From assembly GCF_988242995.1 (NCBI RefSeq), contig NZ_OZ547043.1: a stretch of DNA of 64,000 bases; one strand, 5' to 3'. The position numbers and the translations under genes are program-made. Positions 16,733-28,373 of the stretch are shown piece by piece. The notes beneath the pieces were generated by a model, which saw only the letters and a program-made list of their open reading frames with translations, was not told the origin of the DNA and did not search any database. How positions within the stretch are numbered: the stretch's first letter is position 1; each line of letters starts with the position of its first letter.

Positions 16733-16791
16733 GATGCGCCAGCATCGCATCCGGCACTGGCTCCCAGGCCACGCCAGATGCGCCATGCTGG

Positions 16792-19700
16792 TTACTGGAA
16801 GCAGGTCACCAGACCCGGTTTATTCATTAGCGTGATACTACAATCCTGTGCTCCAGTGCCTTCGTCCATTCCACACTGTTGAGAGGACAAATAAGGAAAA
16901 CTTGGTGAAGACGGCCATCCCAGTGAATTAAAAACAGTGTGCAACAACTCTAATTCATTGTATGTCGGTGCATTTTCTATGCTGCCACACTGCCTTGCAA
17001 TATCCCATTTACTGGCATCAATGATATGTGCAGAAGCCCAGTTTTCGTAGTTAATAATCGGTGAGGATACGGGATTAGCCCCGGACGGCAATTCTGTCGT
17101 TAACAACGGTCGATGTAGCGATTTACCATTCACCACTACAGTGTCTGCCATATGTCCCCAAAAGTGCGCCGAGGAAACATTCGGGCTGGTTGGTACCGTA
17201 AAAATAGCGTCCAGCGTGTCTGTCGCGGAAGCGTAATTAGCCAGAGTAACCGTCAGTGGCGTTTTATAACCAGGGGTATTATCCTGGCGGAGCGTAAAAC
17301 TTGCCGTCCCATCCGCGCCTGTCATGCCACTAATGGTATTACCGCTTTCACTCAGCGTAACAGCCGAACCAGATAACGGCTGAACGATGAGATCGTCCAT
17401 CGCCACCACATCACCATACAACGTCGCCCCAGCGTTACGCGGCGATGCATCGCCACGTTTCAAAGTAAATTCCACATTCGGTACCGTATTCCCGGCGCTG
17501 TCTTTCACCGTCACGGTAACGGGCATGGCTTCGCCTTTTTTCACTTTCGCCGCCTGAATAGCTGCGTCAAACGCTGTTGAGGTCAGTGTGACGCTGGAAA
17601 CCGTTGCGCGCGCAGACACCAGACACGCCTGATAAGCGGCATTACCATTCAATGTCGTTGTGCCATCTTTCATATTGAGCGACTGATTTTTACCATCTGT
17701 AGTCTTATCCTGCGCCCACCAGTAATAATAAACTGACCAGCCAGTTTCCGTCGTAAGGGTGTTATTGGGATAACGTTGATACAGTGACTTCATATCGCTG
17801 AGCAACGGTTGCCGGGCTTCCTCACAAGGGCTGAGGCTGGCATTTGCTTTAGTGGTTGACGAAAAATAGGGCCAGTCCTCATTATTGTTATTGGTTTTAT
17901 TTACCCCGGAGGTCGATGGCAGCTCCTTCCACAATTTCGGTCGTTCAAAGACGGTTCCATTTGCCGCTGTCACCGTTTCTGGCATATGACCCCAGTAGTC
18001 GGCATCCTGGGCGTCAGGGCTGGTGACCACGGTAAATATCAGGTCCAGGTTTGACGTGATCTGCGGATCTTGTGCAAGCGAGACCGTAAACGGCGTTGCC
18101 AGGCCGGTGGTGGCGTTTTGCGTAACATTGAACGTCACTGTGCCATCACTGCCGGTAAAACCAAGCCATTTTGCCGTATCCTGAGCAAAGGAAATACGGG
18201 TTGCTGTCGGTGTGACGACATCTACAATAAGATCATCTGCCGACGATGAGGGCCTAATTCCTGAACGACTTTTCGCCTGCGCCCGCTGAAGCGTCACGCT
18301 CTCGCCACTCAGCAGGTTGCCATTTTGGTCTTTTACTGTCACGACTAACGGGATTGTCTCGCCCTTTTTCGCCGATGCCGAAGGTGTACCGCCGTTACTG
18401 GCGGTTTTCGTCTCATCAAATGCTATTGAAGTCAGGGTAACGCTTGACGGCTTAGAGTGAGGCTGTGCCAGGCAGAGCATTAGAGCAACCGGAGAGAGTG
18501 CGGATGATACTCGTCCCGTACTTAGGTTAAAGACCTGATAATACCAGGAGCTACCATTGGAGTTAAGCAATTCATAAATCCACCAGTTTCCTGACGCTAT
18601 CGGCAACCCCAGATCTTTCGTTAACGCCCCGTTTGGGTGATCGTCATATAACCCCTGCAATTCGCTGAGGCGCGGTTGATATTCCAGCGAACAATCTGCC
18701 GTCGCTTTTTGAGTACTATATATATATGACCATGTCTCATTATTACCGTTTACCGAGCTCCCCGTAGTCGCTTCCGCTGCCAGTAATGGGCGCTTGAAGG
18801 TCACGCCTGCCGAACTGGTAAACGTTTCCGGCATATGGCCCCAGTATTTCGCTTTTGGCGAATCCGGGCTGGTTATCACCGTGAAAATGACATCCAGCGT
18901 GACGCTTTTCGAGGTATCGCGCATGAGTTCTGCGCTGAGCGGCGTTGACAGCCCATAACTGCTATTCTGGCTGACCTCAAACGTAGCTTTACCATCGCTC
19001 CCTGTCTTCAGGAGAGCCTGCGTCCCATCCCCATACAAGATTGACGTTACCCCAGTAGGTTCCACAGGTATGATGGTAAGATCATCTGCAGAAGCATCGT
19101 ACGCAGCTTTAGCGCGGTTCAGCGCAGTCCCTCGTTTAAGGTTAAAGCTGGCACCTGGCAGTGGATTGCCTGCGCTATCTCGCACCGTAACCGTCATCGG
19201 GATAACCTCTCCCTTCTTCGCTGTTGCGCTGGGCCTGCCATCATTGCTGGCCGTTTTCGTTGCATCCTCCGCCGTTGAGGTCATTTCAATAGAAGCCGCC
19301 TCTGGATGAGGGTTTACCAGGCACAGCATTAATGCCGAGGTGCTTGAAGACGCTCTTCCACTTGATCCATTTAACAGATAAATATATTGATCGTACCAGT
19401 TACCCGCATATGCCACCATGTCGTAAGCCCACCAGTAGCTATTTACCGGAATACCCAGATCGGTCTTTATCGCACGACTTGGGTGTTCGTCGTACAATGC
19501 CTGTAGTTCGCTTAACAGTGGTTGATAATGTACATCGCACCCGCTTTTATCGATATCCCCCTTTGTTGCCGATCTCAACACGGCCCACTCTTCATTGTCT
19601 TCTATAAACGACTGGCCCGACGATCTTTCAGCAGAGAGTAAGGGGCGTTTGAAGGCAGTACCAGAACGCGTAGTGAACGTTTCCGCCATATGCCCCCAGT

Positions 19701-22700
19701 AACTTGCCAGGGGGGTATCCGGGCTGGTTATCACGGTAAACATCACGGGTAATTTGTTGGATTCCAGGCTCGACTGATAGGCCTGAGCGTACACATTGGT
19801 TACCAGGCCTATAGAATCATCCTGCTTTACCGTAAACGTGGCTGTCCCGTCTGCACCTGTCACCGCATAAAGGGAGATTGATGGAGTATCCACTCTTGCC
19901 GACGTTCCCGCTGCGTTGATTACAGTGATAGTTCTGTTCGACAACTGTACATTCTGGCGATTTGTCGATCCTTCACGTTTGAGAATAAACGGAACATTTG
20001 GTACGACATTTCCCTGCGCATCTTTTGTCACCACGCGAATCACCGCGTCGTCACCTTTTTTCCGTTTTAGTGCGCTGAGGGTTTCGTCAACTTTGACAAA
20101 TTGTGTCGCATCGTTCGCTTCAACAATAATGTGGCTGGTCACCGCCACTGGGGTAGCCCGACAACTTAGCAGTCCTAGACTGCTTGACATGACCTCCGTT
20201 CCATCACCCGTTTTTAACGAAACCGCTTTAAAATTAAATGTTTGAGTGTAATAGGCAACAACCGTACTGGAGATATAGGCGCGTGATACAGGCCATCCCG
20301 TAACGTCATGTATTGGCACGTAACCTTCATCGGCATACAGTGACTCCAGCTCACTTTCAATCGGGACATATCCTGCACCGCAACCATTTACAGATGTGTT
20401 GTTCGACTGGTCCGGCGAGAACAGTGACCAGCTCTCTCCATCTTCCTGAAAAGAGCTTCGACTGGTTGTAACGGAAAGCTCATCTTGCAATAACGGTCTT
20501 TTATAAATAAGCCCGCCTGCACCGGTCATCGTTTCGGCCATATGCCCCCAGAATTTTGCTTTAGGGGTATCGGGGCTGGTTATCACCGTAAAGACCACCG
20601 GAAGCATTGATTTTACGTTATTATCTGTATCCAGCATGGCGGTCAGTTCGGTTTTTAAACCCGTGGTATTGTCCTGTTTCAGTGCAAGTGTTGTCGTACC
20701 ATCTGCGCCGGTAACGCCATAAATCAGTGCTGTTGTTGAGGAAAAATTACTCTGCGTGTTACCCCAGGCATCCGTCACGATGAGCGCGCCTGCTGTCACC
20801 GTTGTAGACGCATTTGCCCGATTGACGCTAAGGTTACGTTTAAGCGTAAACGCGGTATTTCCCACCGGGTTACCCTGCGAATCTTTAGTGGTCACGCGAA
20901 CCACGACTTCTTCCCCTTTTTTCGCTTTGACAACATTATTCGTACTGTCAAATTTCGCGGGGTCCGCAGCCTCAAGAACGATTTGGCTTGCCTTGACGAT
21001 CGGCGTCGTCTGGCAGGTAAGCAGTTCTTTTGTGGCCGATGGAATTATCGAACTGGTGCCTGAACTGAGATTGACGGCCTTGAAGTCACGCTGTTCCAGA
21101 CTACTGCTGCCTGTCGTGCTGGAAAGGTAACTTGAGGCGACGGGCCAGCCCTGAACCGTTTTCATCGCATTGCCGCGGTTGGCTTCATACAATGACTCCA
21201 GCCCGGCCTGGGAGGGAACATATTCACTACCACAACCATTAGAGGATGTGCTTGTCGCCTGAGTTTGGGTAAATTGCGCCCAGTCCTCATTATCTTCTGC
21301 AATCGCTGTTCGACCCGACGTACTGGATAACTCTTTCAACAATAATGGGCGTTTAAAGACCGTTCCATCCACAGCCGTCACCGTTTCAGGCATATGCCCC
21401 CACATTTTCGCCTTATCGCTGTCCGGGCTGGTGACAACGGTAAAAATGGTATCGAGGGTCGCTTTTTTCGTTGTGTCTGAATAGAGCGCGGCGGTCAGCG
21501 ACGTTTTTGTGCCATGGGTATCCGGGCGGGTAATAGTGAGAATTTTAGTGCCATCGCTGCCGGTCATCGCGCTGTATGCTGCGGCGGTATCATTGAGCGA
21601 AGTTTCATCCGCCAGGCCACTATTGATCACAACCGGCGCAACCAGCGCATCACCGCTACCGGCAATGTGTTTTTCGTTTGATCGGGTATAACCATCGCCA
21701 CGCTTCAGCGTAAAAGGCATATCACCCAATGGATTGCCCTGAGCATCTTTTACCGTCACCTTCACCTGTAGCGTTTCGCCTTTTTTCAGCTTCGCCGCAT
21801 TTGCTGCCGCGTTCCACTGCGCCGGGTCCACCACTTCCAGCGTAATGCTGCTGGCAGGATTGTTAGCCGTCGTCAGGCAACTGACATAAACCGCCGTGCT
21901 ACCGCCAATGGTCCGCGCGCCATCGTTGAGGGCTATGGTGTAGTAATGCGGCACCTGATCCGCGGGCGAACTGCTCCAGTAGGGCTGACGCTGCGTTGGC
22001 CAACCGTGTACCGTTTGAACGGCGTTACCGCTGTTAGCATCATAGAGCGCGTTAAGCTGGGAACGGCGTGGGAGCATATTGGCACCACAGCCACCTTTAC
22101 TGGTGCTGGAAGTGTTGGCCTGGCTAACGCGCGACCACACTTCGTTATTTTCCGTTAATGTGCCGTCCGGGCTGAACACTTCCGCAGCCAGCCGGGGTCG
22201 GGCAAAGGTTAATGCATCGACGGTAATCGTCTCATCCATATGACCCCACATCTGCGCGCCAACCGCATCCGGACTGGTGAGCGTAGTGAAAATCACATTG
22301 TAATTAACAGTATTGGGAATATAGGAGTTTACAGGCGCAATATTCAGCGGCGTCGCTAAGCCCACACCTTGCGGTTGCTTAATTTCCACAGTAGCAAAAC
22401 CCTGCGCATCCGTAGTACCTGCATAGACTAAAGACGGTTGCGATGTTCCGTAGAGCGTGCCATTCATCTCGATTGCGCCGCGGGTTGGATCATCGAAACC
22501 CGTGCTCTGCCCCTGACGATTTTTCCCCATATCTTTAGTGATGGTGAACGCGGTATACGGCACGGGCGCATTACTCAAGGCATTAAAGGTGCGTACCGTC
22601 ATGGTAATCGTTTCACCCACTTTAGCCTGCGCTCTGCTGCTTGTGGAAACATCATGATCGGTGGTCGCAGCAATCTGGGCGACCATCTCATTGCCCGAAC

Positions 22701-28164: not shown

Positions 28165-28194
28165 GCACTTTCCCTGTGACAATGATACAGTCAA

Positions 28195-28373
28195 AAATAA
28201 GCTTTAATATTGTATCCCTGATTATTCAGAAAGGCATGTCATAAAGAATAAATATATTCTTAATTATTTAAATTAGTGATTTCACTCAATTACATTAGTT
28301 ATTCCACTAATAACAGATTGTTTTACCATTCACATATTAAATATAAATGATAAAACAATATATTCACATGATA
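28195..28373 (-). promoter_or_regulatory. strongly AT-rich promoter region upstream of sinH (candidate H-NS-silenced promoter)
   Basis: ~180 nt of visibly A/T-dominated sequence with many TATA/AATAAA tracts between the yfgJ stop and the sinH start; composition differs from flanking core DNA. Confidence 0.4.

Follow-up and report, generated by a model that had tools for sequence, protein, structure and literature searches.

Genes and features of the locus

The window analysed here is a 64,000-nucleotide stretch of contig NZ_OZ547043.1 (RefSeq assembly GCF_988242995.1). This study concerns its positions 16733-28373, the 11,641 bp of DNA between the convergent stop codons of xseA (16732) and yfgJ (28374). 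Three minus-strand genes occupy this interval, encoding a RatA-like protein of 2680 amino acids (aa), SinI of 325 aa and SinH of 725 aa. We consider it likely that they form a chromosomal sinH-sinI-ratA adhesin system of type Ve (the 'ila' cluster, orthologous to that of the Salmonella CS54 island), an old resident of a variable slot with probable export of partner proteins. The locus is already known. Our analysis refines it in several respects, namely its status as a resident locus, the null haplotype that replaces it, its blurred junctions and deep alleles, a motif of the partner proteins and conserved hairpins.

The layout was taken from the open reading frame (ORF) list and from the RefSeq annotation of a 99.3% identical Escherichia coli chromosome, Ecol_316. 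The features are as follows:

15356-16732, plus strand: xseA (exodeoxyribonuclease VII large subunit), left flank
16733-16791, no strand: xseA-ratA spacer, 59 bp, between convergent stops
16792-24834, minus strand: ratA-like gene, 2680 aa
24700-24756, minus strand: coding stretch for RatA residues 27-45, motif common to SinI, just after the signal peptide
24835-24954, minus strand: sinI-ratA spacer with two hairpins
24955-25932, minus strand: sinI, 325 aa
25783-25845, minus strand: coding stretch for SinI residues 30-50 (EESAWVESGETNIFQGTIPWL), motif common to RatA
25987-28164, minus strand: sinH, 725 aa from ATG (prolonged in the ORF list to a TTG at 28194)
28085-28139, minus strand: sinH 5' hairpin, a 25-bp stem in signal-peptide codons ~9-27
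28165-28373, minus strand: yfgJ-sinH spacer, 209 bp, 24% GC
28374-28589, minus strand: yfgJ (double zinc-ribbon protein), right flank
28652-30124, minus strand: der, beyond yfgJ

A preliminary description of this DNA had placed three same-strand genes, ratA-like, sinI-like and sinH-like, between xseA and yfgJ. All three match curated NCBIfam models from end to end with scores above cut-off, and the interval given was exact. SinH matches NF033423 with 1487.3 bits (cut-off 999), residues 1-725 aligning with profile positions 1-730. Its signal peptide, MLRWKRCIMLTFISGAAFA, is cleaved before APE, an IAT_beta barrel (Pfam PF11924) spans residues 63-336 (E = 3.8e-109), and the C-terminal part forms a passenger. 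By its domain content, SinH is an intimin-like inverse autotransporter (type Ve). Intimin and invasin have the same arrangement of N-terminal IAT_beta barrel and C-terminal passenger. However, SinH scores far below the cut-off of the intimin model (252 versus 1400), its passenger has no LysM or Big_1 repeats in Pfam and, unlike intimin and invasin, it has co-encoded partner proteins.

The first of these partners, SinI, is encoded 54 bp downstream of sinH and matches NF040711 with 336.7 bits against a cut-off of 165. It carries a signal peptide, and a Pfam search gave no IAT_beta match, making it a barrel-less protein. Its C-terminal domain (residues 208-325) is homologous to the last domain of SinH. 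The AlphaFold2 model of SinI has a mean predicted local distance difference test score of 67, with a disordered N-terminus (residues 1-62) followed by two beta-rich domains. Comparing this model with the PDB in Foldseek yielded only generic matches of the fibronectin type III or immunoglobulin (Ig)-like kind, with E values of 2e-3 or worse, and a sequence search of the PDB with SinI returned no match. Residues 19-22 of SinI (A-G-Y-C, window 25867-25878) do not vary among 21 homologues whose overall identity is only 42-84%. This tetrapeptide lies within the signal peptide, where such invariance is unusual, and is not a canonical lipobox.

The giant RatA-like protein matches NF011844 (PRK15316) with 5394.7 bits against a cut-off of 3870, residues 1-2680 covering profile positions 1-2683. 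It falls below the equivalog cut-offs for Salmonella RatA (NF011843; 2083.9 versus 3700) and RatB (NF011842; 2272.9 versus 4079) and is therefore correctly named 'ratA-like'. A Sec signal peptide and an N-terminal region of ~210 aa precede nine pairs of BIg21 and InvE_AD modules (Pfam), which begin at about residues 214, 478, 740, 1019, 1307, 1595, 1875, 2158 and 2434; no beta-barrel domain was found in the protein. Tandem Repeats Finder detected no repeats in ratA, the modules being too diverged at the DNA level. Slippage-type phase variation and recent module duplication are thus unsupported.

Conservation of the locus across genera

A scan with a SinI profile over one genome per bacterial species returned 23 loci. 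Salmonella was not among them, and a Salmonella contig was obtained via the exact SinI protein instead. The gene order der-yfgJ-sinH-sinI-rat-xseA-guaB is found in E. coli, E. whittamii, Escherichia sp. E1V33 and MOD1-EC7003, and also in three Pseudocitrobacter, five Citrobacter, two Superficieibacter and one further enterobacterium (L011). A short E. albertii contig reads yfgJ-sinH-sinI-rat and ends before xseA. The Salmonella enterica contig, which shows the yfgJ side only, reads rodZ-ispG-hisS-yfgM-bamB-der-yfgJ-sinH-sinI-ratA-ratB, bearing out the likeness in content and order to the ratA-sinI-sinH part of CS54 that had been noted previously.

The cluster has a GC content of 48-52%. At third codon positions (GC3) the value is 0.51-0.55, versus 0.54-0.56 in guaB, xseA, der and bamB; the composition is host-like and carries no signal of the 'accessory island' that the preliminary description had in mind. 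Its statement that integrase, tRNA and flanking direct repeats are lacking proved sound: no tRNA was found in 12000-33000, neither the ORFs nor the annotated homologues include an integrase or any other mobility gene, and the two junctions have no direct repeat of 9 nucleotides (nt) or more in common. Thus, none of the classical hallmarks of a genomic or pathogenicity island (a mobility gene, a tRNA with direct repeats, deviant composition) is present. Since at least five genera have the cluster at this site, its GC3 is host-like and it bears no mobility signature, we read it as an old resident locus that is absent from K-12-like lineages. Judged by these comparisons, the K-12 state is an old null haplotype and not an empty insertion site. 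The three extra genes of the preliminary description stand, whereas the insertion implied by its word 'wedged' is the less likely reading.

The slot between xseA and yfgJ carries other genes elsewhere, and 'conserved hotspot', as it had been called, is an apt term. In Klebsiella aerogenes (L035, 6213-7576) and Enterobacter mori (L036, 6219-7589) it holds a protealysin-type M4 protease and an emfourin inhibitor, and in Atlantibacter hermannii (L037) it is empty. Such variability would also suit a pathogenicity island that was acquired horizontally and inserted between xseA and yfgJ in extraintestinal pathogenic E. coli (ExPEC), with K-12 as the ancestral empty site. A review calls the locus horizontally acquired (PMC12525524), it is enriched in ExPEC phylogroups (PMC9937491), and the K-12 XseA C-terminus resembles the enterobacterial consensus. 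We nevertheless regard this scenario as very unlikely. Besides the missing mobility signature and a GC3 equal to that of the flanks, the cluster lies at the same site in the other Escherichia sampled, Salmonella, Citrobacter, Pseudocitrobacter and Superficieibacter, sinH was never on a plasmid in the 5426 complete genomes searched, and the flanks diverge gradually.

Blurred junctions and the null haplotype

The last of these points came from comparing the window with K-12-type sequence, where a clean break at both junctions had been predicted. Instead, identity decays gradually. On the left it falls from 98% in guaA/guaB to ~93% over xseA and 79% at 16450-16599, and on the right it is ~50% over the 5' half of yfgJ and returns to 97-99% inside der. 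The XseA C-terminus differs between the window and K-12, the last ~300 nt of the window xseA belonging to a divergent, cluster-linked haplotype. Other cluster-bearing Escherichia and Pseudocitrobacter have the XseA C-terminus in the window form. Similarly, the cluster-linked YfgJ allele is only 65% identical to that of K-12 at the protein level. These flanking core genes are unusually divergent within E. coli (xseA 87-95% nt identity between strains, YfgJ 65-99% protein identity), and this divergence looks linked to the variable locus.

Of 5426 complete E. coli genomes searched with blastn, 1757 (32%) contain sinH, in each case chromosomally and with a median of one copy. Nucleotide identity to the window sinH was at least 99% in 378 genomes, 95-99% in 265, 90-95% in 284, 80-90% in 822 and below 80% in 8. 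As the preliminary description had supposed, most E. coli therefore do not carry these genes, and K-12 is among those without them. By phylogroup, sinH has been reported in 98% of B2, 100% of F, 100% of G and 67% of D, and was undetected in commensal strains of A and B1 (PMC9937491).

Where the cluster is absent, xseA and yfgJ abut. When genomes were sampled at even intervals along the megablast ranking, all those without the cluster had the flanks ~1356 bp apart. The adjacency stated earlier for K-12 is correct, since in MG1655 xseA lies at 2634232-2635602 and yfgJ at 2635599-2635814, with overlapping stop codons. This 4-bp stop overlap and an identical junction, GGTGCATTAAGCCAGC, are found in K-12 MG1655, O157:H7, MS 85-1, one laboratory strain and one blood isolate; the K-12 null junction contains AAGGTGCATTAAGCCAGCACGAATTC. 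Null haplotypes differ among themselves by up to 6% over the xseA 3' end and yfgJ. Over the last 370 nt of xseA together with yfgJ, they have 74-87% nt identity to every sampled cluster-bearing haplotype.

Some of these observations count against a simple history of residence and loss. With 13-26% nt divergence in the null flanks, a simple recent deletion in situ does not explain the null haplotype. The K-12 XseA C-terminus resembles the consensus of Klebsiella, Enterobacter, Citrobacter and Superficieibacter, so that by sequence comparison the K-12 form is the family-wide consensus form and the cluster-linked form the derived one. Furthermore, the empty slot of Atlantibacter means that emptiness is not unique to E. 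coli.

The sequence divergence indicates that the null haplotype is old, and both a deletion in a lost lineage and an import by recombination are possible. In the latter case, the ancestor of phylogroups A, B1, C and E would have lost the cluster through homologous recombination with an unsampled relative whose slot was empty. Such an import would account for the low YfgJ identity between haplotypes and for the divergent xseA 3' ends, for differences of up to 6% among null haplotypes and for the junction that is identical in all of them, and it finds a parallel in the empty slot of Atlantibacter. However, a search via homologues of K-12 YfgJ found no close donor: the K-12-type protein forms a group of 88-100% identity, whose few named members are E. 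coli, and identity then drops straight to ~75% and below in other relatives. Moreover, YfgJ evolves fast generally, so its divergence could be old standing variation. We therefore regard import as a real but lesser possibility. In the resident-locus model that we prefer, the cluster would already have been in the slot in the common ancestor of Escherichia, Salmonella and Citrobacter, and about two thirds of E. coli, including K-12 and O157, would carry one old null haplotype in its place.

Individual strains show further rearrangements of the locus. E. coli AST85 (L028, 9888-13239) has lost an internal segment, so that the 3' part of ratA is now joined to the 5' part of sinH, and each remnant is annotated as a pseudogene; this is an intermediate in the decay of the cluster, which therefore does occur. 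In E. coli E69 (L022, 7358-10315) sinH is present as two ORFs of 230 and 488 aa, ~800 bp apart, which may be due to an insertion or another disruption. E. coli O127:H6 EPEC1, a derivative of E2348/69 (L027, 1256-8775), has an ~8-kb element between der and sinH in place of yfgJ, with genes for a tyrosine integrase, a pentapeptide-repeat protein, a nucleotidyltransferase and a helix-turn-helix regulator as well as an IS4 remnant. In E. coli MS 85-1 (L031, 2440-2750) the der 3' end, the intergenic region and the 5' part of yfgJ are duplicated in tandem next to the null junction. We considered the extra partial yfgJ as a recombination scar and rejected this, the arrangement being merely a local tandem duplication.

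Allelic diversity

Within E. coli, protein identity ranges from 72 to 100% for SinH and goes down to 42-66% for SinI and RatA. The difference between genes is apparent when the window is compared with an allele resembling that of sequence type 131 (ST131; L003). The first 400 nt of sinH are 99% identical, the barrel region ~90%, the passenger region ~78-82%, and sinI and ratA 65-80%; at the protein level this amounts to 90% for SinH and 66% each for SinI and RatA. Other alleles of E. coli and Escherichia are as distant from the window as Salmonella is, with 42-48% identity in SinI and ~53% in RatA.

Pseudocitrobacter proteins are closer to those of the window than the Citrobacter proteins are, with identities of 94-97% for XseA, 84% for SinH, 62-67% for SinI and 53-66% for RatA. 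Der and BamB give the opposite ranking, Citrobacter being closer to the window than Pseudocitrobacter. Because the two sets of genes rank the genera in opposite order, the comparison suggests exchange of cassettes between genera, for example between Escherichia and Pseudocitrobacter. On our reading the cluster evolves fast, and homologous recombination in its flanks exchanges it in the form of allelic cassettes.

A motif common to SinI and the Rat proteins

SinI and the Rat proteins have in common a motif of ~24 residues right after the signal peptide, W(Q/V)-x4-6-(S/T)T(G/D)x(I/F)(N/Q)GT(V/I/P)P. In the window it reads EESAWVESGETNIFQGTIPW in SinI, and its RatA-like counterpart is formed by residues 27-45; the Citrobacter-type forms are NLKSGQWQIVTDSTGTIQGTVPW in SinI and ALKSGTWQEVNTSTDAINGTVP in RatA. 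Every locus has the motif. It also occurs in RatA and RatB of Salmonella, and Buttiauxella and Lelliottia have it in a second, small partner protein. Aligning the SinI and RatA profiles with hhalign matched exactly 24 motif columns (probability 92.7%, E = 4e-7). The motif comes in two variants, AW..EF.GT and LKSGxWQ..I.GT, and the two proteins of a locus change from one to the other in step. In the AlphaFold2 model of SinI the segment lies inside the low-confidence N-terminal 62 residues, ahead of the two beta-rich domains. The simplest reading of this pattern is that the motif serves as a common recognition peptide for one export partner.

A precedent for such a pathway exists in the ZirT-ZirS-ZirU system of Salmonella (PMC2270342). 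There too, a barrel protein of the inverse autotransporter type is followed by Sec-exported, barrel-less Ig-like proteins with domains like those of the barrel protein, and the same architecture of a barrel protein with co-encoded, Sec-exported partners is found in the window. SinI has a weak match to the ZirU family (E = 6.5e-7, below cut-off), whereas the RatA-like protein exceeds ZirS and ZirU about tenfold in size. The two-partner hypothesis, put forward by Heinz et al. and Goh et al., holds that SinH translocates SinI and Rat-like proteins as ZirT does ZirS and ZirU (PMC4943183, PMC6714894). Following their lead, we propose that SinH is exported via Sec and then inserted into the outer membrane through its beta-barrel. 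SinI and the giant RatA-like protein, built of Ig-like domains and without a barrel of their own, would likewise be Sec-exported and would most likely depend on SinH for surface display or release, as ZirS and ZirU depend on ZirT. The motif would then be the recognition element common to both.

Several points temper this proposal. SinH-dependent export of SinI and RatA is a hypothesis for every SinH system, whereas ZirT-dependent secretion of ZirS has been demonstrated experimentally (PMC2270342). The motif is short, and the joint switch between its two variants may reflect one or two events in linked genes. Alignment of the N-terminal SinI and RatA profiles revealed no homology beyond the 24 residues, and we dropped an earlier candidate, a common N-terminal domain like that of two-partner secretion proteins, for this reason. 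Finally, in the work of Goh et al., biofilm formation by IatB (= SinH) did not require the downstream gene (PMC6714894).

The biofilm phenotype of SinH alone could mean that the three proteins are functionally independent. SinH would then be a self-sufficient adhesin and SinI a periplasmic Ig-like protein, for instance a chaperone, such chaperones being known (discussed in PMC4943183), while RatA would take another route or not be surface-exposed; a terminator-like hairpin between sinI and ratA also suggests separate regulation. We think independence unlikely, as the order sinH-sinI-rat is strictly kept over at least five genera, the N-terminal motif links SinI to the Rat proteins, and the C-terminal domain of SinI is homologous to that of SinH. 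In addition, RatA has a Sec signal peptide and no barrel, the ORF list and the RefSeq annotation contain no type I or two-partner transporter gene near ratA, and ZirTSU provides the precedent.

Conserved hairpins and transcription

The sinI-ratA spacer folds into two hairpins with a free energy of -49 kcal/mol (z = -6.7). Both are kept in 16 loci of six genera, and 13 of the 26 pairs show compensatory changes. Hairpin 1 (24918-24945, minus strand) is followed by a T-run and looks like an intrinsic terminator after sinI. A terminator at this position fits the co-transcription of sinH and sinI, which is reported in PMC12525524 with reference to Shea 2022. Hairpin 2 (24878-24914) has a stem of 16-17 bp with a conserved palindromic core, TTTGCTTAA..TTAAGCAAA. 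The core consensus, TTTGCTTA(A/G)...(T/C)TAAGCAAA, occurs once in each locus, in a constant place, and has no second copy in the window. After the hairpin comes a conserved GTTGA, which may be the -35 element of a ratA promoter.

A further stem lies at the 5' end of sinH (28085-28139; 25 bp, z = -6.8). Seven Escherichia alleles retain this stem; across them 93.7% of cells are paired, and three pairs show compensatory substitutions, some of them with a change of amino acid. Pseudocitrobacter has a shorter stem at the same place, and in Citrobacter and Salmonella the stem is absent. Its position and conservation suggest that it may control translation of sinH. An Rfam scan of 15000-30500 matched no family, the sole hit being a sub-threshold microRNA model on the sinH 5' hairpin. 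A simple scan for promoters and terminators returned no more sites than shuffled sequence did, and it missed the spacer hairpins.

At the outer ends of the cluster, both features named in the preliminary description are present. The AT-rich tract at the yfgJ junction was confirmed, its length being 209 bp (28165-28373) and thus slightly above the ~180 bp originally estimated. The yfgJ-sinH spacer is similarly AT-rich (23-34% GC) in all genera examined and presumably holds the sinH promoter and regulatory region. At the xseA junction, the palindromic string GATGCGCCAGCATCGCATC was located at 16733-16751, and the right arm of this palindrome, which resembles a repetitive extragenic palindromic (REP) element, runs into the xseA stop codon. 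The REP 13-mer GCCKGATGCGRCG matches with one mismatch on the minus strand at 16743-16755; the window contains 14 such matches against a chance mean of 8.9, which is not above chance. The 59-bp xseA-ratA spacer folds as one long hairpin (16738-16791; -34.7 kcal/mol, z = -3.4) that is probably a bidirectional terminator or a 3'-end stabiliser.

Taken together, sinH and sinI would form one transcription unit, driven from the AT-rich region beside yfgJ and ending at the conserved terminator hairpin. Transcription of ratA would then come from read-through, from its own promoter behind the second conserved hairpin, or from both.

Comparison with known systems and significance

The ila cluster of ExPEC strains (CFT073, BEN2908, ST131) has the same three genes in the same order and chromosomal position as the window. 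It goes back to Shea et al. 2022 (as cited in PMC9937491), appears as GR17 between xseA and yfgJ in PMC12928451, and its SinH protein is described as IatB in PMC6714894. The match to the ExPEC sinH locus proposed in the preliminary description is thus borne out by the literature (PMC12928451, PMC12525524, PMC9937491), as is its verdict that this is 'not a novel system'. There is no difference in kind between the window and the ExPEC locus, and the window represents one of several deep allele classes.

In the Salmonella CS54 island the order is xseA-shdA-ratB-ratA-sinI-sinH-yfgJ (Kingsley et al. 2003, as cited in PMC4943183). Like the window, CS54 has sinH-sinI-ratA in this order beside yfgJ and the same hairpins in the sinI-ratA spacer. 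Protein identities between Salmonella and the window are 73% for SinH, 45% for SinI, 75% for YfgJ and 40% for RatA. In contrast to CS54, the window has only three genes between xseA and yfgJ, ratB and shdA both being absent. The N-terminal 1372 residues of Salmonella RatB, which are present in the fetched locus, are 49% identical to the Rat protein of the window. The latter is therefore related to Salmonella RatA and RatB and is an equivalog of neither.

An ancient resident with a null allele, as opposed to a recent island, changes how the association with extraintestinal virulence is to be read, since the locus tracks phylogroup ancestry. According to PMC12928451, which cites Shea 2022, mutants of the cluster genes in CFT073 are attenuated in a mouse model of urinary tract infection. 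SinH is also a protective antigen and an ExPEC vaccine candidate (PMC9937491), and the allelic divergence at the locus therefore bears on vaccine coverage. The motif common to SinI and RatA provides a concrete handle on the question of whether inverse autotransporters of the SinH/ZirT type export separate partners.

More tentatively, two further readings may hold. One is that the motif of SinI, RatA, RatB and the small partner proteins is the long-missing export or recognition signal of a two-partner pathway that depends on inverse autotransporters; the terminator, the palindrome before ratA and the 25-bp stem in sinH would then set the stoichiometry of SinH and its partners. The other is that the presence or absence of the cluster and its deep allele classes reflect long-term diversifying or balancing selection, accompanied by the passage of cassettes from genus to genus, as between Escherichia and Pseudocitrobacter.

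Neighbouring slot and database labels

A second variable slot lies between der and yfgJ. In Enterobacter (L036, 3313-5950) it encodes an MFS/PTR2-type transporter and a GFO/IDH-type oxidoreductase. L008 (4955-7633) and L015 have two ORFs of comparable length there, L014 has one and L011 two others, and nothing lies there in Escherichia.

The labels of two retrieved loci deserve caution. A contig labelled as a metagenome-assembled genome (MAG) of Collinsella sp. (L004) encodes SinI and RatA proteins 98-100% identical to those of the window and is almost certainly mis-binned E. coli. Another, labelled Citrobacter sp. MAG (L024), has XseA 98% and RatA 67% identical to the window and an xseA 3' end of the Escherichia/Pseudocitrobacter type, which makes its label doubtful.

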